A stretch of 13,551 nt of DNA. Origin: a virus. The stretch lies in the IMG/VR virus record IMGVR_UViG_3300012949_000081. The stretch is one strand, 5' to 3'. The notes under the pieces were generated by a model. The model saw only the letters and a list, made by a program, of their open reading frames with translations. It had not been told where the DNA came from and searched no databases. Made by a program: the position numbers and the translations under genes. The stretch's first letter is position 1. Each line of letters opens with the position of its first letter. Of the stretch, positions 1 to 13,551 are shown in pieces.

Positions 1-121
1 GTCCAGCTTTAAGGCTTTTGCTGCTAAAATCATGTATCCAATAGCCGCCGCGTTTGTCATACCGTCCATGTTTTCACTCCTTTTTTACTTTAATGTTTAC
101 TTGCATTTTATTATAATATTA
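1..121. repeat. Terminal direct repeat copy A (circularisation overlap)
   Basis: Base-for-base identical to 13431-13551. Contains the first 69 nt of the 54-aa ORF plus its RBS and the conserved box. Confidence 0.95.
87..101 (-). promoter_or_regulatory. Conserved box ACTTTAATGTTTACT (copy 1; duplicated at 13517-13531)
   Basis: 15-mer identical to 964-978 and 14/15 identical to 7559-7573. Lies between the predicted -10 (110-115) and the RBS of the 54-aa ORF. Confidence 0.6.
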
Positions 122-139
122 TTACCTGTTTAGTGTCAA
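110..139 (-). promoter_or_regulatory. Sigma-70/SigA-like promoter of the par-rep operon
   Basis: Minus strand reads TTGACA (139-134), then a 17-18 nt spacer, then TTATAAT (116-110). Sits immediately downstream of the terminator at 142-182. Confidence 0.5.
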
Positions 140-141
140 GT

Positions 142-182
142 AAAAAATAAGGCGGTCAAGGTTTAATTATCCCTGGCCGCCT
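142..182 (-). terminator. Rho-independent terminator after the 107-aa gene
   Basis: Minus-strand hairpin AGGCGGCCAGGG / CCTTGACCGCCT (150-182, one mismatch and one wobble), followed by TATTTTTT (149-142). Confidence 0.6.
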
Positions 183-188
183 GTTTCT

Positions 189-512
189 TTAATATCCTCT
201 TTTTAGCCGCCGCATTATAACGCTTGGCGCGTCCAGCTGCGTTTTATAAGTTATCATGCGTACGTCTGTATTGTAGTCTTTAGCAAGGCCTATTTTCTTA
301 AATTCTTCAAGGACTGTCATAATACCGGCCGCCGCTTCTGTTATGTCTGTGGCTTCTGGATATACAAAGTATTTGCCTTCCGCATATACCACAACGGCAT
401 ATGTAGAAAATGGGTTATCCGGCTCTATCGGAAAGGCAAATATAGTACCGCCCAACTGTTCCCTTATGGCTTTGGCTGTTTCAATGGCTTGTTGCTTTGT
501 CTGTTTCTTCAT
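189..512 (-). CDS. Hypothetical protein (107 aa from the ATG at 512; the track ORF extends to 533)
   Basis: Long ORF on the coding strand. RBS GGGGGA lies 9 nt upstream of the ATG at 512 (MKKQTKQQ...). No motif I recognise. Overlaps the upstream gene by 32 nt. Confidence 0.6.
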   Translation of the reverse strand: MKKQTKQQAIETAKAIREQLGGTIFAFPIEPDNPFSTYAVVVYAEGKYFVYPEATDITEAAAGIMTVLEEFKKIGLAKDYNTDVRMITYKTQLDAPSVIMRRLKRGY

Positions 513-927
513 TTCTCTTTTCCCCCGTTTCAATAGCCCTTTTTAATATTTCTTGGGTTGCAATGATATAATCAAAGGCCATATCTACAAAGTTAAATAT
601 CAAGTCATACTCCAAAAACCATTTATAAGACTGTTTCCCATGCTCTTTTTCTTTTTCGTCGTCCTGGTTCTGGCTCGGTACCTGGCTGCCCCATCTTATA
701 GCTGCTCTCGGGTCTGGCTTATCTGCAAAGCCATACTCTTGTGTCCAATAGCTTAACAAGGTATCAGCCTTTTCTAACTTAATAAGAGCGTCCTCAATGG
801 CTGTACGCGTTTCAAACAATTCATGTTTTAAGGCTTTTTCCGTAACGTTTGCTGCCGTTACTTCGTTTACCCCGTTTATACCGCTTACAACGTTTATCAT
901 GCTTACTGCGTTTACCATTTTGTTCAT
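481..927 (-). CDS. Hypothetical 148-aa protein with an N-terminal x-[V/I]-[N/S] tripeptide repeat
   Basis: ORF on the coding strand with a weak RBS (GTGGGG, 7 nt before the ATG). The first ~27 codons are encoded by the 9-bp phased array at 847-918. No recognisable domain. Confidence 0.55.
   Translation of the reverse strand: MNKMVNAVSMINVVSGINGVNEVTAANVTEKALKHELFETRTAIEDALIKLEKADTLLSYWTQEYGFADKPDPRAAIRWGSQVPSQNQDDEKEKEHGKQSYKWFLEYDLIFNFVDMAFDYIIATQEILKRAIETGEKRNEETDKATSH
847..918. repeat. Eight tandem 9-bp units with G[C/T]TTA[C/T] core (plus-strand orientation)
   Basis: Units: gtttgctgc, cgttacttc, gtttacccc, gtttatacc, gcttacaac, gtttatcat, gcttactgc, gtttaccat, starting at 847, 856, 865, 874, 883, 892, 901 and 910. 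The last six are strong and the first two degenerate. Confidence 0.8.
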
Positions 928-963
928 GTAAATACCCCACTTTCTAAAATGTTTTTTGGTGAT

Positions 964-978
964 ACTTTAATGTTTACT
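964..978 (-). promoter_or_regulatory. Conserved box ACTTTAATGTTTACT (copy 2)
   Basis: Identical 15-mer to 87-101. Lies 37 nt upstream of the ATG at 927 and downstream of the predicted -10. Flanked by GGTGA/TCACC inverted repeats. Confidence 0.6.
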
Positions 979-991
979 CACCGTTTAATGA

Positions 992-1022
992 TATATTACA
1001 CCATGATTATTATATTTGTCAA
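992..1022 (-). promoter_or_regulatory. Sigma-70-like promoter of the 148-aa/107-aa cassette
   Basis: Minus strand reads TTGACA (1022-1017), an 18-nt spacer, then TAATAT (998-993), with TG immediately upstream of the -10. Confidence 0.45.
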
Positions 1023-1032
1023 GTAGTTTTTT

Positions 1033-1059
1033 GTAAATAAAATAAACATAGTAAACATA
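1033..1059. repeat. Three tandem 9-bp units gtaaataaa / ataaacata / gtaaacata
   Basis: Same [G/A]TAAA[C/T] core and 9-bp phase as the large arrays. Sits between terminator 1068-1095 and promoter 992-1022. Confidence 0.5.
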
Positions 1060-1067
1060 AAAAGTCG

Positions 1068-1095
1068 AAAAAAGAAAAACGGCCAATATGGCCGC
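1068..1095 (-). terminator. Rho-independent terminator after the head-closure gene
   Basis: Minus-strand hairpin CGGCCA-TAT-TGGCCG (1094-1080), followed by TTTTTCTTTTTT (1079-1068). Confidence 0.6.
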
Positions 1096-1121
1096 TCTTG
1101 TATTATAACTGTGGGCTTATA

Positions 1122-1466
1122 TCAATGTATCGGCGGCTTGTCTTCATAGCCACCTGTTGCATATATTTTTATGTCGCCCTTGTAGCCTTCAAAGGTATCA
1201 ATCCGGATAATGTTAAAATATCGGTTCTTGTATTTAATAATCATGTCTGTTGTTATATCGTTGCGCCAATTTATTATAAATAACATTTCTTCCTCGGCTT
1301 GTACGGCTTTGGCTGCATAATATTCCCTGGCCGATAAATGCCTTACATAAGCCCACAACTTACCTTCATGTATCGGCGTCCATTCATAGCGTGGCATATT
1401 GCCCGGTTCTGCAACGTTGCGGCCTTCTAAAATCTCAATTTTCTTATCCTTAAGCAATTTACCCAT
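1122..1466 (-). CDS. Phage head-closure / head-tail joining protein (SPP1 gp16 / HK97 gp10-like)
   Basis: Size and sequence pattern are typical of the head-tail joining family (WAYVRHLSAREYYAAKAVQAEEEMLFIINWRNDIT...YFNIIRID). RBS AAGGAG lies 8 nt before the ATG at 1466. The track start at 1490 lies inside the terL 3' end and has no RBS. Confidence 0.7.
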   Translation of the reverse strand: MGKLLKDKKIEILEGRNVAEPGNMPRYEWTPIHEGKLWAYVRHLSAREYYAAKAVQAEEEMLFIINWRNDITTDMIIKYKNRYFNIIRIDTFEGYKGDIKIYATGGYEDKPPIH

Positions 1467-1479
1467 CTTATCAACTCCT

Positions 1480-3123
1480 TTATAAAGCATTTAAAAACTC
1501 GTTATAATGCTCATATAAGCCCACATAGGCGTTTAATAGGCTTGCTGTACCATCTATACGCATTTTTGCGCTCTGCGCCTTTATGGGTACAATATTGCCG
1601 TTTCTGTCGGTCTGTACGCCGGTATTGGTTAAGCACCATTTGAGAATAGGGTTGTTATTATAATTTATCTTCTTGGCCTGGAGATCCGCTCCCAACATCT
1701 GCATAGGTAAGCTTAAGGTCTTGGCTCCCTGTATGCAGCGCACCATCTTAAAGCCGTAATTCTCCATTTCTTCAACCCAATACTTGGCGCTATAACTGTC
1801 GTAATATATCCATAAAGGCGTTATGCCCTTCTCGTTTACCATCTCCAAAAACCAGGCCGTAACGTCGCCGTAATTGATTGAATTGCCGTTACAAAGTCTT
1901 ATTAAGCCCTGTTCAAGCCATTTATCGTATGGTATTTTTTCCTCTGTTACGCGCTTCTCAAAGTTATCCCGCGGCAGCCAATACATTTGATATACAAAGC
2001 GTTCCTCTGTTTCTTTGTCCATCATCAAGAGCGTTGCGCAAGTTAAGTCTGTGGTAATACTTAAATCAGCGCCGCCTATGGCATAGCAATTCTTAAACCT
2101 GGCAATGTCAAAGGTTTTCTCATTGTTTATATCATCAAAGGAAAGCCATGCGCTGCTAATGGTATCTCTTATATTGAAGTCCTTTACCAATATGCCGTTA
2201 AGGTCTTTCGGGCTGTTCTTGGCTCTCTCAACCTTGTTCATAAGGTCGTCCAGCTTCTTAATCGTGCCTAAACCCGGATTTGCTTTTTCCCAGGCCTTCG
2301 GGTCTTTCCATTCTTCCCGGTTATCCAGCTCATAGATTATGGGTAAAAATGTATCGTCCTGGAATGTACCATCAACAACGTTGCAGGCGTAAGAATACAT
2401 ATCATCAAATATGCACTCTCTGACGGTTCCGGCCGTTGTAATCATTACAAGTAAAGGCTGCCGTCTGGCGCTCTGGCTTTGTTTCATAACTTCGTAAAGG
2501 TTCCGGTCTTTTATGCTGTGCAGCTCGTCAATGATAACACAATGAGCATTTAGGCCGTCCAGGGTATCGCTGTTCTTTCCTAAAGGCTGAAATTTGCTCA
2601 TAGTCAAAGGAAAATATAAATCACTCTTGCGCTTCTTTATGTACCGGTTAATATCCGGACTTTGCTTTACCATGTTATGGGTTTCATCAAACACAATGCG
2701 CGCCTGGTCTTTCTTTGTGGCCACACTGTAAACTTCTGCGCCTGGCTCATTGTCTGCAATCATCATATAAAGAGCAATACCGGCAAGCATGGTACTTTTA
2801 CCATTCTTACGGCCTACCATGAACAACGTTTCCCGGTACTTTCTTAAGCCTGTTTCCTCATGGACAAACCCAAATAAGGCGGATATATAAGCCTTCTGGA
2901 ATAGTTCCAGCTTAACTGGCTTTCCCGCCCATTCGCCTTTAGAGTGCTTACAGAATTGTTCTATAAAGCGTATAGGCTTGGTTGCACGGCTCTCGTCGAA
3001 TATATACCCGCCCTTTGGGTTCTTTATGTCATCAACAAGCTTCTCGTACTGCTTCCTTACCCTTGTGGAAACAATACAAGAGCCGTTGCAAATTTCGTTA
3101 TAATACTGCTCAATGTAATTCAC
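1480..3123 (-). CDS. terL: Terminase large subunit
   Basis: Walker A GRKNGKST, Walker B VIIDELH, and the nuclease-domain aspartate motif GGADLSITTD. 547 aa. GTG start preceded by AAGGCGGTGA. Confidence 0.95.
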   Translation of the reverse strand: MNYIEQYYNEICNGSCIVSTRVRKQYEKLVDDIKNPKGGYIFDESRATKPIRFIEQFCKHSKGEWAGKPVKLELFQKAYISALFGFVHEETGLRKYRETLFMVGRKNGKSTMLAGIALYMMIADNEPGAEVYSVATKKDQARIVFDETHNMVKQSPDINRYIKKRKSDLYFPLTMSKFQPLGKNSDTLDGLNAHCVIIDELHSIKDRNLYEVMKQSQSARRQPLLVMITTAGTVRECIFDDMYSYACNVVDGTFQDDTFLPIIYELDNREEWKDPKAWEKANPGLGTIKKLDDLMNKVERAKNSPKDLNGILVKDFNIRDTISSAWLSFDDINNEKTFDIARFKNCYAIGGADLSITTDLTCATLLMMDKETEERFVYQMYWLPRDNFEKRVTEEKIPYDKWLEQGLIRLCNGNSINYGDVTAWFLEMVNEKGITPLWIYYDSYSAKYWVEEMENYGFKMVRCIQGAKTLSLPMQMLGADLQAKKINYNNNPILKWCLTNTGVQTDRNGNIVPIKAQSAKMRIDGTASLLNAYVGLYEHYNEFLNAL

Positions 3124-3135
3124 CGTATCACCGCC

Positions 3136-3486
3136 TTAATTAGCTTTTATAAACTCGTATAAGGCGTTTTCTTTAACCTCTGGCATTGCAGCTTTAGGCA
3201 ATAGGTCTGTAAGCTGTTTATAAAGCAGGCTGTATCTTTGTACTGTGGTATTATAGGCCTTCAATGCCGGGCTTTCTCTCATAAATTCCTGTTTACCCTG
3301 CTTGAATAGCTCAACGGTTCCATGTTCTTCAATCTGTTCCTTAAGGTCATTGAGCGTTTTATACATGAATAGCAGCTCATTTATGAGCTTTTCACCTATC
3401 GCCTTCCTATCTTCCGGTATCTGCTTCAATATCTTGTTAAGTTGTCGTTTGGTTTTCAAAAATTCTTTATCTTGGCTTAAATCCAT
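3136..3486 (-). CDS. terS: Terminase small subunit (P27-like family)
   Basis: 116-aa helical protein immediately upstream of terL and downstream of an HNH gene. Sequence resembles P27-family small terminases (ALKAYNTTVQRYSLLYKQL). Confidence 0.75.
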   Translation of the reverse strand: MDLSQDKEFLKTKRQLNKILKQIPEDRKAIGEKLINELLFMYKTLNDLKEQIEEHGTVELFKQGKQEFMRESPALKAYNTTVQRYSLLYKQLTDLLPKAAMPEVKENALYEFIKAN

Positions 3487-3516
3487 CTATTTCACCGCCT
3501 TATTACTTGCTGTTTA

Positions 3517-3528
3517 TTTAATGTTTAC
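3517..3528 (-). promoter_or_regulatory. Conserved box TTTAATGTTTAC (copy 3, 12-nt core only)
   Basis: Core identical to the other three boxes. Lies 31 nt upstream of the terS ATG. No convincing -35/-10 seen upstream. Confidence 0.45.
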
Positions 3529-3548
3529 CCCTCCCTCGTATATGTCCT

Positions 3549-3604
3549 GGAGAGAGGAAAAGAAAGGTACCCGCGCCGGTTACGCGCCCCGCGAAAAATT
3601 TTTC
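3549..3604. other. Candidate cos / terminase recognition region
   Basis: Lies in the HNH-terS intergenic region. Contains a 19-nt pure-purine run (3549-3567) and a locally very GC-rich segment (3566-3593) with CGCGCC repeated 11 bp apart (3572, 3583). Also has the perfect 12-bp palindrome GAAAAATTTTTC (3593-3604). Confidence 0.35.
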
Positions 3605-3899
3605 AAGGCCGGGGGGATTTGATTAAATTTCCGTTGCTGTCGAAGGCCAAACCTTCTGCACAAACTTCCGCGCTGCTGTGTTCTTTGTTATGGCAATCCT
3701 GGCATAATGCTTCAAGGTTACTCCAATTCAAGGTTATATTGACGTCATGTATGTTTTGCGGCGTTATATAAGTTTTATGGTGGACTATGCGCGCCGGTTT
3801 CCCACAACGTTCACATATATAATGCTTACTTGCCATGTATGCCGCTTGTGTATCTCTCCAGGCCTTGCTATTATAGAAGTCCTTTGCATAGTCCTTCAT
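3603..3899 (-). CDS. HNH endonuclease (packaging-associated)
   Basis: Zinc/HNH motifs CERCG...IVHHK...LEALCQDCHNKEH. 98 aa, directly upstream of cos/terS as in HK97-like cos phages. Confidence 0.9.
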   Translation of the reverse strand: MKDYAKDFYNSKAWRDTQAAYMASKHYICERCGKPARIVHHKTYITPQNIHDVNITLNWSNLEALCQDCHNKEHSSAEVCAEGLAFDSNGNLIKSPRP

Positions 3900-3903
3900 A
3901 ACC

Positions 3904-4176
3904 TCAACCCCTGGCCTTTACGGTAAGAGCTTTAAGCAAACTGTCAATAGTCCTTTGCAGCTTCTCGCTGTCTGTCTGCTCTGCGTTATACCACAACTGC
4001 AATATAAACTTTGCTGCTGTCTTGGCTAATGGCTCCTGCTCCTGTTGTTCCTTTGTCATGCCGGTTGTTACTTCAATGTATCCTGGTATAGCTTCAAGCA
4101 AAGAAGCAATTATAATGTCGTTGTCGTAGCCGTCTAACCTTAAAAACTCTCTGGCTTCTGATATATTTAAAATCAT
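3904..4176 (-). CDS. gp6-like head-tail connector (adaptor) protein
   Basis: 90 aa. N-terminus ISEAREFLRLDGYDNDIIIASLLEAIPGYIE is typical of the gp6-like connector family. Located just after the capsid gene. Confidence 0.75.
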   Translation of the reverse strand: MILNISEAREFLRLDGYDNDIIIASLLEAIPGYIEVTTGMTKEQQEQEPLAKTAAKFILQLWYNAEQTDSEKLQRTIDSLLKALTVKARG

Positions 4177-4201
4177 GTTATCACCCCTTTATTTAAGTAA
4201 A

Positions 4202-4226
4202 GGGTATTGGCATTAACCCAATACCC
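4202..4226 (-). terminator. Perfect 9-bp stem hairpin after the capsid gene (possible attenuator)
   Basis: GGGTATTGG, 7-nt loop, CCAATACCC. On the minus strand it is followed by TTTACTTAAAT, only a partial U-tract. Confidence 0.35.
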
Positions 4227-4249
4227 CCTACTCCAATCAATAGGCCTTA

Positions 4250-5491
4250 TTATTCAGCTGCTTCATGCAGCTTTACAAAGGCCTCGGTAACTATCGGCTT
4301 ACAGTCAGCTATTGCCAAAGCTCTGTAATCAATCAAGCCGCTTCTAAAGCTGCTTTCCCTGGATACTTCGATTACAATACCTTCTGCAAGGTTGTAGCCC
4401 ATGTAATTGAAGTTACCCAGGTAAATATCACCGTCGGCAATATTATCATCAATTACAACCTCGCGGCCTAAAATGTAGCCTATGCTTTCGTTCTTCGGGT
4501 CAGCTATGAATATAGGCCGTTTATTCTGGTCTACAACGCCGTAAACGTGAGTGTAAAGGGTTGCGTTATTCATAGCCCATTTAGCGCCCTGGCTGTATCC
4601 TCTCTTAAGCAATGCCATTGTAGCCACAAAGTCTTTATATTCCGGCTTGGATCCGTTGGCATATTCAACGGCGTTTTTGTTATCTCCAGTTGCTGTCCAG
4701 GTAATGCTTTCAAGGCCTGTTCCCTGTCCTTCACCGGTACCGTTAACCAAAGCGTCGGCAATACATTCCATAACGCAAGCGTTCAGCTCGTCAATAAGGT
4801 ATTGCTCAAAGGCGTCAATGCTCATTCTCTTTGCAGCTGCGCTGATAGAGAATACTTTGAGAATTTCATATCCGTTAAAGGATACGGTTGCAACGGTGTT
4901 CTTTTCGCTTTCAACCTTTGCGCCTTCTGTATGCCAACTTGCTTTGTTGGCCGGTGTTCCTACGGGTACGGCTATCTTTGTGGGTAAATTAAAGCTTCTG
5001 CATACTGAAATCAAGCCGCCCATCTTACGCGCCTTGCTTATAACTTCGTTCAAGGTCGTTGTCGGCAATACTGCGGCTGCACTCGTTACGGTGTTAAACT
5101 GGTCTGCCCTTCTTTCGGCCTTTACAATGTCCATAGCGCGCTTAAAGGCTGCTTCCTCAACGGAAGTAAGCTCTTTGCCTAAAAGCTGTTTGAAAAATGC
5201 GCTCCTGTATTCTGCGCTTGCGAATATGTCGCCCTCTCTGGCTTCATAGCTGCCATTGTTTACAAAGCTTGCGCCGGTAATAGGGTTAAACTGCTGTCCG
5301 GGTTTCTGGCTTCTCTGTTCAATGTTTTCCTTTGCCTGCTTCAAGCCTTCCAGTTCGATATTAAGGCTTGCAATGTCGGCGTTCGGGTCTGTATCCACAA
5401 CCTGTTTGATTTCCTTTGCTCTTTTCTCGATTTCCTCAATAGAGCTGTTCATGTAATGGTTAAATGCTTCTGCAATATTCTTAAACTTCAT
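4250..5491 (-). CDS. Major capsid protein, HK97 fold, with N-terminal delta (scaffold) domain
   Basis: 413 aa. Coiled-coil N-terminus (about 100 aa) followed by an HK97-family-like body. Directly follows the prohead protease. Confidence 0.9.
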   Translation of the reverse strand: MKFKNIAEAFNHYMNSSIEEIEKRAKEIKQVVDTDPNADIASLNIELEGLKQAKENIEQRSQKPGQQFNPITGASFVNNGSYEAREGDIFASAEYRSAFFKQLLGKELTSVEEAAFKRAMDIVKAERRADQFNTVTSAAAVLPTTTLNEVISKARKMGGLISVCRSFNLPTKIAVPVGTPANKASWHTEGAKVESEKNTVATVSFNGYEILKVFSISAAAKRMSIDAFEQYLIDELNACVMECIADALVNGTGEGQGTGLESITWTATGDNKNAVEYANGSKPEYKDFVATMALLKRGYSQGAKWAMNNATLYTHVYGVVDQNKRPIFIADPKNESIGYILGREVVIDDNIADGDIYLGNFNYMGYNLAEGIVIEVSRESSFRSGLIDYRALAIADCKPIVTEAFVKLHEAAE

Positions 5492-5497
5492 AGTAAT

Positions 5498-6067
5498 TCA
5501 TACCCCTTTCATCAATATTTGGTTAATTCTGATTTTTGCGGCCGCTCTTAAAGGGTCGTCTTTTATTCCCTTCATGGCCGCCCTGGCTTCAACGCTTGTT
5601 TGCGGATACGCCGGGAATGGTACTATTGAAATCTCATAGATTTTCTCAATTTTGAGAATTTCCCGCGTATTCGTGGCTGCGTCGTATCTGTCGCCGCCTT
5701 CCGGTACCTTAAAAGCAAAGCTCATGCCGGTTAAATCGCCGCGTTTTACTGCCGTATAAACGCTTTTGGCTTCCTCTGTATCCGGCAACTTTGCAACCAT
5801 CTTAAGGCCTGCCGCATCCTTAATCAGCTGCATTGTTTTAGGCGTCCTTGCTAAAGGTACCTTGCTTAAATCATGGTTGTATAAAAGTCTTGTGTCGCTT
5901 ATGTCTGCTTCGTCTAAAGCTCCACTTCTGATAATTTCGATATACTGCCCTGCCGGGTCGTTTATCGTTGTGGGCTGGTCGTAAACAATCGGCCTGCCCT
6001 CTAATATAAGGCCGCCTTCGCCTGCCGGTTCTGCGGCTCTTATTTCGCAAACCCTAATTTCCTTCAT
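5498..6067 (-). CDS. HK97-family prohead maturation protease
   Basis: 189 aa. Motifs LEGRPIVYDQP, YNHD (His) and GMSFAF (Ser). ATGA overlap with the portal stop. Confidence 0.9.
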   Translation of the reverse strand: MKEIRVCEIRAAEPAGEGGLILEGRPIVYDQPTTINDPAGQYIEIIRSGALDEADISDTRLLYNHDLSKVPLARTPKTMQLIKDAAGLKMVAKLPDTEEAKSVYTAVKRGDLTGMSFAFKVPEGGDRYDAATNTREILKIEKIYEISIVPFPAYPQTSVEARAAMKGIKDDPLRAAAKIRINQILMKGV

Positions 6068-7266
6068 TCTTCCACCTCTTTCAGCTGGTACTTATTTGCC
6101 TTTGCTGCGTCCACAACATTCAATGTCTGTAATCTCTTGTCGCCGTCCTCGACGCTTGGCAAATTCAATATTTCTAATGCCTGGTTTACGGTTAATAAGC
6201 CGTAAGGCATAAGCTCTTTAATCAAGTTTACTTTTGTTCCGTTGCTGCTGAATTGCAGGCGGCCGCTTTCAAATATGATTGAATTGCCAAAGGCCTGCTC
6301 TCTCTCATTAAATAGCTTCCTGGTAAATTCAAGACTTAACTGTACGGCTATTGGCTCAATAGTGCTTTCATAAAATGCCGCCCACTGATCTTCTGTATAG
6401 CTGCTGTTTACAATGGCTTCTGATATGCCTAAATAATCATATATTTTGGTCTTTATGGCCTGTATCTGCTTATCGTCTATTGTGGCCGGTTTAAGCTCAA
6501 TGGGCACATACTCCATTTTTTGGTCTGTTGCTACAACGCCGCCGTTATTGGCTATCTGCAAGTAATCATTTATAAACCTTTCCTTTTCCTCTTTAAGCTT
6601 CTCCGGCGCCATTATCTGCGTAAATTTCAGTATGCCGCGTATGTTCGCACTGCTCTTAATACCGTTTACTATGCCCTCATTCTGCGTATGGGCTAATTCT
6701 AACGCCGGTATAAGCGCTGTGTTCGGGTCTCCCAATAAATCGTTGTCGTTGAAATTGCGGCGTAAATGGATTATGTCTGAATAAGGTAATGTAACCTCTT
6801 TGCCGCTTGCGAATTGAAATCGGCAATATAAATCACCTGTGGTATCTGCTAAAAACTCAACGTGTAAAGCTCTTAACGGATATATGCCGGTAAGCTGTCC
6901 TCTCTCGTCCCTCTGGAGAAAAGCAAAGGCATTGTTATATAGATAATAATGGGTTACCATCTTATAGAGCATATCAAAGGCGCTCATATATGGGTTTGGC
7001 TGTACCTGCAATAACCGGTTTATTTTGCTGTTTTTGGCTTGTTCTCTGCGGTCTGCGTATTGTATAACATGGCTTCCTTTAAGTTTGGCCGCGTTCCTGG
7101 CTATTGCGTCAACCGCTCCCCGGTAAATGTCATTACTGTATGCGTCGCCATTCCAGGCTGTAAATATTGCCGTCTGGCCATTCATTATGTCGGCTCTGTC
7201 CTGCTCTGTCCGTTTCTGTGGTTTTCCCTTGAATATCCTTTGAAAAATGTTAATTGTTCTCACCAC
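6064..7266 (-). CDS. Portal protein, HK97 family
   Basis: 400 aa, positioned before the protease and capsid genes, with sequence character of HK97-type portals. The start is GTG (7266 or 7263) and overlaps the stop of the 83-aa ORF, so the exact start is uncertain. Confidence 0.9.
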   Translation of the reverse strand: MVRTINIFQRIFKGKPQKRTEQDRADIMNGQTAIFTAWNGDAYSNDIYRGAVDAIARNAAKLKGSHVIQYADRREQAKNSKINRLLQVQPNPYMSAFDMLYKMVTHYYLYNNAFAFLQRDERGQLTGIYPLRALHVEFLADTTGDLYCRFQFASGKEVTLPYSDIIHLRRNFNDNDLLGDPNTALIPALELAHTQNEGIVNGIKSSANIRGILKFTQIMAPEKLKEEKERFINDYLQIANNGGVVATDQKMEYVPIELKPATIDDKQIQAIKTKIYDYLGISEAIVNSSYTEDQWAAFYESTIEPIAVQLSLEFTRKLFNEREQAFGNSIIFESGRLQFSSNGTKVNLIKELMPYGLLTVNQALEILNLPSVEDGDKRLQTLNVVDAAKANKYQLKEVEE

Positions 7267-7511
7267 CGTTCTTCATTCGTGAAGCCTGCCGCCCTTTCAC
7301 ATTCCTTTATGGCCTTTACAAGGTTGCTTTCCATCTTCTCCTTAAGTTCTGGCGCATAAACCGAATAATGGGTTATGTATCGCTCATTAAGGTAAACAAT
7401 ATCATCATTTACCCACACTGGAATAAATCCAGGTCTTGGCGGCGCTTCGTCGCATGATAATACATTTTGAAGTTTTTGCCCGTCTGTAAATTTAATGGTC
7501 TTATATACCAT
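7260..7511 (-). CDS. Hypothetical 83-aa protein, first gene of the head operon
   Basis: ORF on the coding strand with RBS GGGGAG. Translationally coupled to the portal gene. No recognised motif. Confidence 0.55.
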   Translation of the reverse strand: MVYKTIKFTDGQKLQNVLSCDEAPPRPGFIPVWVNDDIVYLNERYITHYSVYAPELKEKMESNLVKAIKECERAAGFTNEERW

Positions 7512-7548
7512 GTTCTCCCCTGCTTACTGTTACATTTTTACATCTATC

Positions 7549-7577
7549 ATTATAGCATACTTTAATGTTTACGTCAA
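7549..7577 (-). promoter_or_regulatory. Near-consensus promoter of the head operon with the conserved box (7559-7573) in its spacer
   Basis: Minus strand reads TTGACG (7577-7572), exactly 17 nt, then TATAAT (7554-7549). The spacer contains GTAAACATTAAAGT. A second TATAAT at 7587-7582 lies 9 nt upstream of the box, the same spacing as at 110-115 versus 87-101. Confidence 0.6.
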
Positions 7578-7624
7578 GTTTATTATATGATTATCAGAAT
7601 TACTTTGTTTATTGTTTTTACTTG

Positions 7625-7651
7625 GTAAACATAGTAATAAAAATAAACGCA
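7625..7651. repeat. Three tandem 9-bp units gtaaacata / gtaataaaa / ataaacgca
   Basis: Same core and phase as 1033-1059 (shared AAACATAGTAA). Partly overlaps the terminator U-tract. Confidence 0.4.
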
Positions 7652-10246: not shown

Positions 10247-10312
10247 TTTCTCATCTCCCTTTTTGTATCCACATGGGGTATATTTCTTTATTCTTTAAGC
10301 CCATAATATTAA

Positions 10313-10349
10313 GGCGGCGCGGCGGCGTCAAACAAGCCGCTGCCGCCGC
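10313..10349. other. GC-only imperfect hairpin in the origin region
   Basis: GGCGGCGCGGCGGC, loop gtcaaacaa, GCCGCTGCCGCCGC: about 8 bp of G/C pairing with one wobble. No adjacent U-tract on either strand, so it is not a typical terminator. Confidence 0.4.
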
Positions 10350-10380
10350 TATAAAGCTTATATAGCTTATAAAGCTTATA
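10350..10380. repeat. AT-rich segment with three 9-bp phased GCTTAT units
   Basis: GCTTAT at 10356, 10365 and 10374 (ataaagctta tatagcttat aaagcttata). The core fits the G[C/T]TTA[C/T] consensus of the 847-918 array. Possible DNA-unwinding element. Confidence 0.5.
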
Positions 10381-10447
10381 CAATTTTACGGCAAACTCTG
10401 GAAGGCTTGTCTTTACTGGGTTTAATGGCATTTTTTACTCTTTTTAT

Positions 10448-10535
10448 CGTTACCACTTTCTGCCCCATGCGTTACCACTTTCTGCCCCATGCGTTACCAC
10501 TTTCTGCCCCATGCGTTACCACTTTCTGCCCCATG
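10448..10535. repeat. Four perfect tandem 22-bp iterons (cgttaccactttctgccccatg): candidate replication origin
   Basis: Identical units at 10448, 10470, 10492 and 10514. They abut the stop codon (10537-10539) of the 459-aa gene and lie upstream of the primase-helicase gene. Confidence 0.8.
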
Positions 10536-11931: not shown

Positions 11932-12003
11932 GTAAACACAATAAGCAATGTAAACAAGGTAACCACAGTAAACATTGTAAACTGTGTAAACATGGTAAAC
12001 ATT
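11932..12003. repeat. Eight tandem 9-bp units with [G/A]TAA[A/G/C]C core: candidate centromere/operator array
   Basis: Units: gtaaacaca, ataagcaat, gtaaacaag, gtaaccaca, gtaaacatt, gtaaactgt, gtaaacatg, gtaaacatt, starting at 11932, 11941, 11950, 11959, 11968, 11977, 11986 and 11995. Orientation is opposite to the 847-918 array. Confidence 0.85.
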
Positions 12004-12203
12004 TATTTATCCTTACCCTTGTCATTGTCAATGCCTAAAAGGTACTCTCTCATAGCTTCCTCTGTAACATACCAGCGCGTACCAAACTTACGGGCTTTTA
12101 TGCGGCCTTCTTTGAAAAACTTTCTTATGCTCTGCGGCGTCATATCAAAGATTTTGGCTATTTCCTGCACATCGTAAAATTTGATGTCGCCTATCTGCTT
12201 CAT
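12003..12203 (-). CDS. Excisionase/AlpA-type (MerR-like) helix-turn-helix DNA-binding protein
   Basis: 66 aa. YDVQEIAKIFDMTPQSIRKFFKEGRIKARKFGTRWYV matches the excisionase-family HTH pattern. The start overlaps the RHH gene stop (TAATG). Confidence 0.75.
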   Translation of the reverse strand: MKQIGDIKFYDVQEIAKIFDMTPQSIRKFFKEGRIKARKFGTRWYVTEEAMREYLLGIDNDKGKDK

Positions 12204-12540: not shown

Positions 12541-13293
12541 TTACTTACCTCCCTTAATAATTTCAGCTGTCAAAGCATTATAGCCCGCGGCCGTCGGTGA
12601 TACTGGCGCATAGGTTAAAATATCCGTCTGATTTGCCTGGGCTTCTCTTGTCGCCACACTTGCCCTTATAAAGGTTTGAAATACTTTTGTATTCATTCGC
12701 TTTGCTGCGGCCTTTGCCGCTTTTTCAAACTCTCTGCTTAAAAGGGTTCTGTTGTTATGCTGCGTAAACAATAAGCCTTCAATTTTTAGGCCTGGGTTAC
12801 TATGACGCCTTACGGCTTCTATGGTAGAATATAATTGGCTTAACCCTTGCAGGCTTAATACGTCTGCTGATAATGGAATAATAACGCTGTCGGCAGCTGT
12901 TAAGGCGTTTATGGTTAATATCCCTAATGACGGCGGGGTATCAATCAAAACATAATCATAGCCGTTCTTAACGGCTTCTACTTTGTTCCTTAATAGCTCC
13001 GGCCGCTTAATTTCCATATCGGCACCGCTCAAAAGAATGTTGGCCGGTATAATATGGCCGCTCTTGGTTTGCTGCAAAGCGTTTTTAATGCTTACCTTGT
13101 CGTTCAATACTTCATATACTGTGGGCTTATTTACGCTATCTGCGCCGGCAATAAAAGATAAATTGCCTTGCGGATCCAGGTCAATCATTAAAACCCTATA
13201 TTCCTTATAGGTCAATGACGCGGCCACATTATGGGCTGTTGTCGTCTTGCCTACGCCGCCCTTTTGGTTGGCTATTGCTATAACCCTGGGCAT
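12541..13293 (-). CDS. parA: ParA/Soj-family partition ATPase
   Basis: Deviant Walker A IANQKGGVGKTTT at the N-terminus, then LMIDLDPQGN, then Walker B VLIDTPPSLG. 250 aa. Confidence 0.95.
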   Translation of the reverse strand: MPRVIAIANQKGGVGKTTTAHNVAASLTYKEYRVLMIDLDPQGNLSFIAGADSVNKPTVYEVLNDKVSIKNALQQTKSGHIIPANILLSGADMEIKRPELLRNKVEAVKNGYDYVLIDTPPSLGILTINALTAADSVIIPLSADVLSLQGLSQLYSTIEAVRRHSNPGLKIEGLLFTQHNNRTLLSREFEKAAKAAAKRMNTKVFQTFIRASVATREAQANQTDILTYAPVSPTAAGYNALTAEIIKGGK

Positions 13294-13334: not shown

Positions 13335-13499
13335 TTAATAAAAGCTGTTATATGCTTCTTCCGCTTCTTCCTCGGTTCTCATGTCCATAAAATACTTCAT
13401 GTTGCTTTCCAGCTGCTTTATGGTTTCCTTGTCCAGCTTTAAGGCTTTTGCTGCTAAAATCATGTATCCAATAGCCGCCGCGTTTGTCATACCGTCCAT
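13335..13499 (-). CDS. Hypothetical 54-aa protein, first gene of the par operon (not in the ORF track)
   Basis: My translation: MDGMTNAAAIGYMILAAKALKLDKETIKQLESNMKYFMDMRTEEEAEEAYNSFY. Strong RBS (AAAGGAGTGAAAAC-ATG). Stop TAA at 13335-13337, 41 nt upstream of the parA start. Below the track length cutoff. Confidence 0.45.
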   Translation of the reverse strand: MDGMTNAAAIGYMILAAKALKLDKETIKQLESNMKYFMDMRTEEEAEEAYNSFY

Positions 13500-13551
13500 G
13501 TTTTCACTCCTTTTTTACTTTAATGTTTACTTGCATTTTATTATAATATTA
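13431..13551. repeat. Terminal direct repeat copy B (circularisation overlap)
   Basis: Identical to 1-121. The repeat boundary at 13431 falls inside the ORF 13335-13499, so it is not a natural element end. Confidence 0.95.

Follow-up and report, generated by a model that had tools for sequence, protein, structure and literature searches.

ParG of TP228 is a ribbon-helix-helix (RHH) protein with a disordered N-terminal tail that autoregulates the par operon through repeats overlapping its promoter. RHH proteins of the ParB class bind repeats that overlap promoters and thereby regulate several operons (PMC9499535). The omega protein recognizes 7-bp repeats, which may be direct or inverted and take up one dimer each, and these sites are operators and centromere at once (PMC9499535). 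In satellites such as the Staphylococcus aureus pathogenicity islands (SaPIs), the Gram-negative phage-inducible chromosomal islands (PICIs), and the capsid-forming PICIs (cf-PICIs), one element-encoded DNA-binding protein (Stl or AlpA) gates replication together with packaging or capsid modules. Here, we describe a short sequence box that stands in front of four gene units in a stretch of virus DNA of 13,551 nucleotides (IMG/VR record IMGVR_UViG_3300012949_000081), which at its full length we call the window. Sequence comparisons indicate that the box is probably a DNA operator of an RHH and helix-turn-helix (HTH) module encoded by the element itself. We infer that the box system is a variation on regulation of the omega/ParG type, in an apparently undescribed family of elements.

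Positions 1 to 121 of the window are identical to positions 13431 to 13551, a 121-bp assembly overlap that closes the sequence to a circle of 13,430 bp, and its plausible genes all lie on the minus strand (18 minus-strand open reading frames [ORFs]). On this circle we found four distinct copies of the box, each preceding the first gene of its unit: the partition and replication unit (A), a two-gene unit (B), the terminase unit (C), and the head unit (D). The exact 12-mer GTAAACATTAAA occurs on the minus strand at positions 89 to 100, 966 to 977, 3517 to 3528, and 7561 to 7572, and again at 13519 to 13530 as the overlap copy of the first. These five matches in the linear window, all of them minus strand, compare with 0.00 expected from 200 dinucleotide shuffles; when up to two mismatches are allowed, there are 14 matches versus 3.7 expected. 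An earlier reading of the window from its letters (the first-pass annotation) had reported ACTTTAATGTTTACT at 87 to 101 and 964 to 978, ACTTTAATGTTTACG at 7559 to 7573, and TTTAATGTTTAC at 3517 to 3528, all in the same orientation, and we recovered these sequences, coordinates, and orientations as described. It had also listed 13517 to 13531; the sequence there is correct, but it is the copy at 87 to 101 seen through the assembly overlap and not a second site. The measured gaps between box and start codon (Table 1) are consistent with the 18 to 48 nt given at that time.

To place the box in a wider context, we used relatives retrieved through the 459-aa protein of unit A (10 viral, 59 metagenomic, and 3 genome loci, at 30 to 99% identity), which come from anaerobic digesters, rumen, and gut metagenomes. 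In the close subfamily, each of the four sites A, B, C, and D has its box at the corresponding place, while the flanks diverge. The motif scan of related elements that had been suggested as a check bears this out, with about 40 relatives carrying the box at the same places amid drifting flanks. Alignments of close relatives contain three invariant blocks, namely, the -35 hexamer, the -10 hexamer, and AAGTAAACATTA(A/G)A. In distant subfamilies GTAAACA(T) is kept and the second half of the box varies (e.g., GTAAACATGATAAT, GTAAACATAAAAAG, and GTAAACACTAAAAT), and the consensus of 82 unique isolated sites is GTAAACATnAAAnnA. The placement of the box among these relatives is diverse. It begins 6 to 9 nt past the -10 hexamer at A sites and in loci L152, L155, and L196, and 15 nt past it at B; it lies within the -35/-10 spacer at D and in the promoter directly upstream of the RHH gene (L154, L150, and L155); it stands on both sides of one promoter in L155, L150, and L196 (the integrase promoter in L196); and it is inverted within the -35/spacer region in L160 and L075. 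It is also found upstream of the -35 hexamer and, inverted, beside the terL-unit terminator upstream of the unit B promoter (P_B), and at several A sites it abuts the Shine-Dalgarno sequence (GTAAACATTAAATAaaGGAGG in L002, L020, and L193). Given that both its position and its orientation vary relative to promoters, the box behaves as a protein operator and not as an RNA leader or an alternative-sigma promoter.

Within the box, we propose that the recognized core is the pseudo-palindromic hexamer GTWWAC (GTAAAC in the window), which is followed by a conserved A/T-rich flank, ATTAAAGT. Hexamers of this kind recur in the window in arrays with a 9-bp register (Table 1). One of these ends in a degenerate reverse box at positions 1051 to 1065, and an exact reverse box occupies that place in L004 and L007. 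Family-wide, adjacent GTAAAC/GTTTAC hexamers spaced by 9, 18, 27, and 36 bp number 29, 17, 7, and 3 in the same orientation and 9, 5, 0, and 5 in opposite orientation. Because the 9-bp phase is kept in either orientation, it appears to be set by the symmetric hexamer. The pattern points to a reader of box and arrays that is two-fold symmetric and has one major-groove site of about 6 bp, as for an RHH beta-ribbon.

The promoters around the boxes indicate what binding might do. The three best minus-strand sigma-70-like sites of the whole window are those adjoining boxes A, D, and B. Sites overlapping the promoter core or start of several operons, as a global regulator would have, are present at A, B, and D, where the promoters match 10 to 12 of 12 positions, and likewise in relatives, including at the promoter of the RHH gene itself. 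Box B starts 15 nt past the -10 hexamer of the second of its two overlapping promoter sites. The TTGACG-17-TATAAT promoter reported earlier around box D is present and is kept in relatives. A TATAAT had also been noted 9 nt upstream of boxes A and D; both are there in the window, but in relatives the copy at D is only a weak -10-like sequence (TAAAAT, CAAAAT, or TAGAAT). Given that the boxed promoters are near consensus (12/12, 11/12 with TG, and 11/12), they would need a repressor rather than an activator, and binding sites over the core or start of such promoters make a classical repression layout.

Table 1. Boxes, hexamer arrays, promoters, and candidate regulatory genes in the window
Feature	Sequence or description	Position	Strand	Context
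Box A	GTAAACATTAAAGT	87..100 (same copy as 13517-13530)	-	9 nt downstream of P_A -10; 17 nt upstream of 54-aa gene ATG; conserved in relatives
Box B	GTAAACATTAAAGT	964..977	-	15 nt downstream of P_B -10; 36 nt upstream of 148-aa gene
Box C	GTAAACATTAAATA	3515..3528	-	30 nt upstream of terS; adjoins putative cos site
Box D	GTAAACATTAAAGT	7559..7572	-	47 nt upstream of 83-aa gene opening the portal-protease-capsid unit
Phased array	8 units of GTAAAC-like hexamers, 9-bp register	11932..12003	+	Between HTH_17 stop codon and 459-aa gene start; candidate centromere (parS)
Inverted phased units	9-bp-phased GTAAAT / ATAAAC / GTAAAC, then ATAAAAAGT	1033..1065	+	Between terL-unit terminator and P_B
Inverted phased units	Three 9-bp-phased units, GTAAAC, GTAATA, ATAAAC	7625..7648	+	Upstream of D promoters
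P_A	TTGACA-18-TATAAT, 12/12	110..139	-	-35 and -10 invariant in 10 relatives
P_B	Two overlapping sites, TTTACA-17-TATAAT (11/12) and TTGACA-18-TAATAT (10/12)	993..1037	-	Promoter scan
P_D2	TTGACG-17-TATAAT (11/12, with TG), box D in spacer	Within 7549..7611	-	Conserved in relatives
P_D1	TAAACA-18-TATAAT	7611->7582	-	Box D 9 nt past its -10
ParA gene	250 aa, short Walker-type, without N-terminal DNA-binding domain	12541..13293	-	Expected partner of an RHH centromere-binding protein
Predicted RHH gene	110 aa; disordered N-terminus with invariant GRP, strand TRATFIV, two helices	12203..12535	-	Proposed reader of box and arrays
HTH_17 gene	66 aa; start overlaps RHH stop by 1 nt	12003..12203	-	Always adjoins RHH gene; possible cofactor or rival reader

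The distribution of the motif ties it to particular genes. Box and arrays accompany a ParA-RHH-HTH_17 cassette on three different replicon backbones and across 34 to 50% GC. Where a locus encodes this RHH protein, its intergenic DNA has on average 4.4 copies of GTAAACA per kb; where it does not, the average is 0.64 per kb (Mann-Whitney p = 8e-8, uncorrected for phylogeny). A typical density in coding sequence is 0.2 to 0.9 per kb. In L189 and L190, the 459-aa protein (Rep459, or Rep) is 64 to 65% identical to that of the window, closer than in several box-bearing relatives, yet the RHH protein is unrelated, HTH_17 is absent, and the loci hold 0 and 1 intergenic GTAAACA, respectively. Conversely, L194 to L196 have no Rep459 or capsid homologue and have in common with the window only ParA (42%), the RHH protein (60%), the HTH protein (52 to 56%), and a 104-aa protein; in these loci GTAAACATTAAAC boxes flank the integrase promoter, and phased hexamers are present. 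Hexamers are likewise present in L197 to L199, where the Rep is only 28% identical and the primase is different but the ParA-RHH-HTH cassette is common. From these three contrasts we concluded that the box is tied to the RHH-HTH pair and not to the 459-aa protein. Rep459 was accordingly rejected as box reader, as it occurs without hexamers (L189 and L190) and hexamers occur without it (L194 to L196); the conserved motif associated with Rep is the 22-bp iteron with core AAAGTGGTAAC and not the box. Short phased repeats that are inherited with an RHH protein, as a centromere would be, are seen in the 8-unit array, in the family-wide phasing, and in an intergenic enrichment found only with this RHH protein.

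Two of these groups have further features of their own. L189 carries a different repeated motif (4939 to 6178), TTATGRTTATAT-like, around the ParA and RHH promoters of these Rep relatives with a different RHH protein, which is consistent with a regulator having been swapped together with its sites. The element of L194 to L196 measures about 9.7 kb, encodes a tyrosine recombinase, Toprim-DnaB, and DUF6075 among others, stands in two tandem copies in L194 (a 19.7-kb contig), and contains a 9-bp-phased alternating GTTTAC/GTAAAC array inside its primase gene.

Which protein of the cassette reads the box? ParA matches AAA_31 (E = 2e-56) and the ParA-like phrog_164, and CbiA/ParA matches span the whole protein from residue 3. 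The gene that directly follows encodes the predicted RHH protein. In its AlphaFold model, residues 1 to 55 are disordered and are followed by an extended segment (61 to 69) and two helices (70 to 83 and 87 to 99). Among nine listed Foldseek matches, six are RHH proteins, including the closest small-domain ones (CopG, ORF56, the PutA DNA-binding domain, MatP, and CdbA), none of them significant. PHROGs gave Arc-like repressor matches (E of 5e-4 to 7e-3), and Pfam gave no family at E <= 0.01 and no match to the Omega_Repress or ParG families. Across 31 RHH homologues, G40-R41-P42, R63, and T65 are invariant, and the strand variants TRYTVIL and TRWTVVV differ at alternate strand positions only. 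L193, which has the TRYTVIL variant, retains an unchanged box; this fits a change on the non-contact face of the strand only and hence does not discriminate. For the L131-type protein (TRWTVVV, with an HTH protein 90% identical to that of the window), no relative was found in viral contigs, and the sole contig encoding it, L192, has no intergenic DNA. The invariant G-R-P lies within the disordered tail (residues 38 to 44) with no other conserved residue adjoining it; it resembles an AT-hook core, or it could be a ParA-stimulating arginine region.

The 66-aa protein encoded next matches HTH_17 (E = 2e-10) and excisionase families, and its recognition helix and wing diverge strongly (22 to 38% identity) between subfamilies that have the hexamer in common. 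A natural fusion of RHH and HTH_17 (P0096, 150 aa, from a 12.5-kb contig) suggests that the two act together. The first-pass annotation had offered the HTH protein as an AlpA-like activator and the RHH protein as an omega-like repressor. The former found no support, either as a family label, since the protein has no Phage_AlpA match and its putative DNA-reading positions vary while the hexamer is constant, or as a role, since the boxed promoters already match 10 to 12 of 12 positions and the boxes lie over core promoters or transcription starts. The latter is the better-supported option, given the orientation-independent 9-bp phase, the invariant R63, T65, and GRP, the position of the gene right after a short ParA, and, in relatives, a box inside the spacer of the promoter directly upstream of the RHH gene.

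We therefore lean, with modest confidence, toward the box being the operator of the element's RHH partition/repressor protein, possibly with its HTH partner, and co-repressing all four units; both the identity of the binding protein and repression as the effect of binding are our inferences. The sites would be read by a dimer of the 110-aa RHH protein, perhaps jointly with the 66-aa HTH_17 protein, whose translation is coupled to its own. On the arrays of 9-bp-phased hexamers, the candidate centromeres, the dimers would form a coat; elsewhere they would occupy single boxes, which at A, B, and D overlie the transcription start or core of strong sigma-A-type promoters and at C stand where the unit begins. 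Partition/replication, accessory, head, and terminase genes would then all be repressed together, in the manner of omega (pSM19035) or ParG (TP228). Repression might be relieved by a helper-induced antirepressor or by titration of the RHH protein by the arrays as copy number rises.

Several observations weigh against this reading. An RHH dimer reads about 6 to 8 bp, yet 14 to 15 bp are conserved in the window's subfamily, and the flank must therefore be read by something else; in a possible explanation of the 14 to 15 conserved nucleotides, the site is composite, and the HTH protein or the GRP arm takes the A/T flank while the RHH protein takes the hexamer. Statistical support for the RHH fold is weak (Foldseek E > 1, PDB hidden Markov model E of 0.3 to 0.8 for RHH proteins, and a mean predicted local distance difference test score of 68), and no RHH homologue with an altered R63 or T65 was found. 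The RHH and HTH_17 genes are never apart in our data, and once they are fused, so that co-occurrence cannot separate them. In L191 the RHH protein has R-x-T-x-I but there is no intergenic GTAAAC; the ParA of this locus is truncated, and it may be a decayed element. In the window scan, box C had no scoring sigma-70-like promoter, only a weak -10-like ATATAC 9 nt upstream. Lastly, a fifth promoter-like site before the primase-helicase gene (10331->10303, TTGACG-17-TATTAT) has no box. The earlier claim that the box lies upstream of all blocks thus stands for the four blocks it named but does not extend to every promoter-like site.

Of the alternatives, one keeps the reader within the cassette: the 66-aa HTH_17 (excisionase/MerR-like) protein, and not the RHH protein, might read box and arrays as a repressor or an activator, or, in a variant, the RHH protein would take GTAAAC and the HTH protein the flank. 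Its gene always comes after the RHH gene, overlaps the RHH stop codon in the window, is fused to it in P0096, and is absent from the box-less L189, L190, and L165. Moreover, one RHH dimer explains only 6 to 7 of the 14 bp, the flank is variable family-wide, as the HTH protein is, and excisionase-type proteins can bind phased direct repeats. A reader whose recognition helix and wing differ as strongly as noted above is nevertheless difficult to reconcile with a constant hexamer, and a phase kept by inverted hexamers is hard to square with an asymmetric monomer in head-to-tail filaments. We looked for covariation between HTH subgroup and box flank and found none that was clean, and for activation in particular there is no necessity at promoters already near consensus. 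We regard this alternative as unlikely, though worth keeping in mind. The control of the element from outside, by a regulator that a host or helper phage encodes, seems more doubtful still. Satellites are commonly controlled by helper products, and box C, without a strong promoter of its own, could need an outside factor. The motif, however, follows the RHH-HTH cassette across backbones and 34 to 50% GC and vanishes where the cassette has been exchanged. When IMG/VR was scanned for the exact box, the matches listed were mostly single and chance-like, in unrelated contigs, plus family fragments; several close boxes (at most one mismatch) were found, again among the matches listed, in family fragments (L020, L075, L103, and L112) or in L094, an unclassified contig of only 1.9 kb. 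Among them was no large phage contig with several boxes, which is weak evidence against an outside reader. Where the first-pass annotation had allowed for an element- or helper-encoded protein, it is thus the element-encoded half that our data favor, the box being missing where the cassette is replaced, and the matches listed include no multi-box phage that looks like a helper.

Two further explanations do without an operator altogether, and we consider both of them very improbable. The box might act as RNA, in a shared 5' leader for a translational repressor, a processing enzyme, or a small RNA, a possibility that had been raised before. At A, B, C, and P_D1 the box would fall at about +2 to +22 of the transcript, near the Shine-Dalgarno sequence. 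A leader is at odds with the boxes of relatives that are upstream of the -35 hexamer, inside spacers, or inverted, with the conserved D promoter, which keeps the box out of the transcript, and with the presence of the hexamer in orientation-mixed arrays, and there was no Rfam match; this option is not supported. Alternatively, the box might itself be a promoter element, either the -10/-35 of an alternative or helper sigma factor or a loading site of the Q/AlpA type that has a sigma-dependent pause. TAAAGT in the box does resemble a -10 hexamer, and box D lies between -35 and -10 hexamers like the Q- or AlpA-binding elements, QBE and ABE (PMC9371919). Against this, the distance and orientation of the box to canonical hexamers are not fixed, and the characterized AlpA antiterminator of Pseudomonas aeruginosa is a larger, eight-helix protein that needs fixed promoter geometry, unlike the 66-aa HTH protein (PMC9371919). 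In the A sites where the box abuts the Shine-Dalgarno sequence (L002, L020, and L193), a transcript begun 7 nt past the box would lack the ribosome site; there the box cannot serve as -10 or -35 hexamer of the promoter expressing the gene, and on these grounds we rejected an alternative-sigma hexamer.

An RHH operator would place the locus beside the systems described above, with differences from each. As in omega/delta (pSM19035/inc18), a small predicted RHH protein with a flexible N-terminus stands beside a short Walker ParA, and short non-palindromic or pseudo-palindromic repeats occur in direct or inverted orientation, here as hexamer arrays and as boxes at four or more promoters. Unlike omega, however, the protein does not match Omega_Repress in sequence, the units follow a 9-bp register and are not contiguous 7-bp heptads, and the promoters mostly have one strong 14-nt box where those of omega have 7 to 10 heptads. 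Our proposed regulon also includes phage head and terminase operons, and an HTH_17 partner gene is always attached. Like ParG/ParF (TP228, type Ib), the element would use an RHH centromere-binding autorepressor with arrays of short boxes, such as those in parH and the O_F operator. The repeat differs from that of ParG, in which ACTC tetramer boxes are separated by 4-bp spacers, no operon but its own is known to be regulated by ParG, and a Pfam search detected no sequence homology between ParG and the 110-aa protein. With no Pfam family matched, we class the resemblance to both systems as one of working principle and not of family membership. The gating of replication and packaging or capsid modules by one element-encoded DNA-binding protein recalls Stl and AlpA, and the head module (portal, protease, capsid, adaptor, HNH, terS, terL, and head closure) recalls the cf-PICIs. 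Unlike SaPIs and PICIs, the element has no integrase and no Stl-like or CI-like repressor, its maintenance appears plasmid-like (ParA, a circular 13.4-kb contig, and circular relatives), and its proposed regulator is a partition protein. Its small HTH protein belongs to HTH_17 only and not to Phage_AlpA, and with near-consensus boxed promoters, activation of the PICI AlpA kind is not indicated.

Unit A contains, in transcription order, the 54-aa gene, the ParA, RHH-like, and HTH_17 genes, the phased GTAAAC array, and the gene for the 459-aa family-specific protein. It is followed by four 22-bp iterons and an origin-like region, a primase-helicase gene (PrimPol/NrS-1-like HBD plus DnaB_C domains), a 179-aa gene, and a terminator. 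By PHROGs assignments, unit D consists of the 83-aa gene and genes for portal, prohead protease, major capsid, head-tail adaptor, and HNH proteins, and unit C consists of terS, terL, and a head-closure gene with a terminator at its end. The function of the two unit B genes (148 aa, 481 to 927; 114 aa, 189 to 533) is unassigned; their products had no significant family match, with only a sub-threshold DUF7126 for the 114-aa protein. Relatives differ in the gene that opens unit A and in the one that opens unit B, which suggests an accessory cargo position under box control. The element thus encodes its own portal, protease, major capsid, adaptor, HNH, terS, and terL proteins, as a capsid-forming satellite would. 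No integrase was found in the window, and no tail or lysis genes were found among the 18 minus-strand ORFs. Independent relatives are also circles, of 13.2 to 14.7 kb with terminal overlaps of 99, 90, 43, and 23 bp. A chromosomal island would be expected to have an integrase and att sites and to be induced by a helper; the absence of an integrase from the window, the circular contig with ParA, and the circular relatives speak against such an island. Given the lack of integrase, tail, and lysis genes and the circular relatives, the element appears to be a satellite-like replicon that is maintained as a plasmid and forms capsids. When the whole circle was compared by megablast with the INPHARED phages and the PLSDB plasmids, nothing matched, and the family as such is apparently undescribed.

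Other repeats were seen in the course of this work. The origin-like region (10300 to 10535), between the 459-aa gene and the primase-helicase gene, holds the four 22-bp iterons CATGGGGCAGAAAGTGGTAACG (minus strand), whose core is kept across the whole family, as well as three 9-bp-phased TATAAGCTTTAT units (10351 to 10380) and a GC-rich inverted repeat. A putative cos site lies between HNH and terS. The contig L160 is linear, and its two ends border the 11-nt CGGCGTGTGGA, a stretch that is found in the circular relative L158 (999 to 1183), and the counterpart of this core in the window is ACCGGCGCGGGTACC (3557 to 3571), about 29 nt upstream of box C. In one subfamily (L010, L152, L153, L154, and L155), the 10-mer GA(A/G)CCCACAG occurs in 8 to 14 copies per approximately 13 kb, on both strands and also within genes. 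The window has four copies of the related CTGTGGGCTTAT (1109, 1347, 1515, and 13119) versus 0.05 expected, and 10-mers of this type could be a Chi-like or host-specific signal.

The most far-reaching version of our model joins these strands, and as a whole we hold it to be speculative and rather unlikely. In it, an RHH ParB would also be the master repressor of head and packaging operons in a family of circular elements of 13 to 14.6 kb. Long, cooperative arrays, as centromeres, and single promoter boxes would form an affinity hierarchy, HTH_17 would read the A/T flank, making the 14-nt box a two-protein composite operator, and a replication burst or a helper antirepressor would titrate the RHH protein off the promoter boxes so that all units fire at once. 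If operator control by the RHH protein is correct, the box would define the complete regulon of an uncharacterized, widespread family of plasmid-maintained, capsid-encoding, satellite-like elements. The 14-nt motif, GTWWAC in 9-bp phase, and one 110-aa protein would then give a simple means to find such elements and to engineer their induction. Plasmid segregation and the silencing of virion genes would be wired through one small protein, extending the omega/ParG paradigm from plasmid housekeeping to phage morphogenesis.

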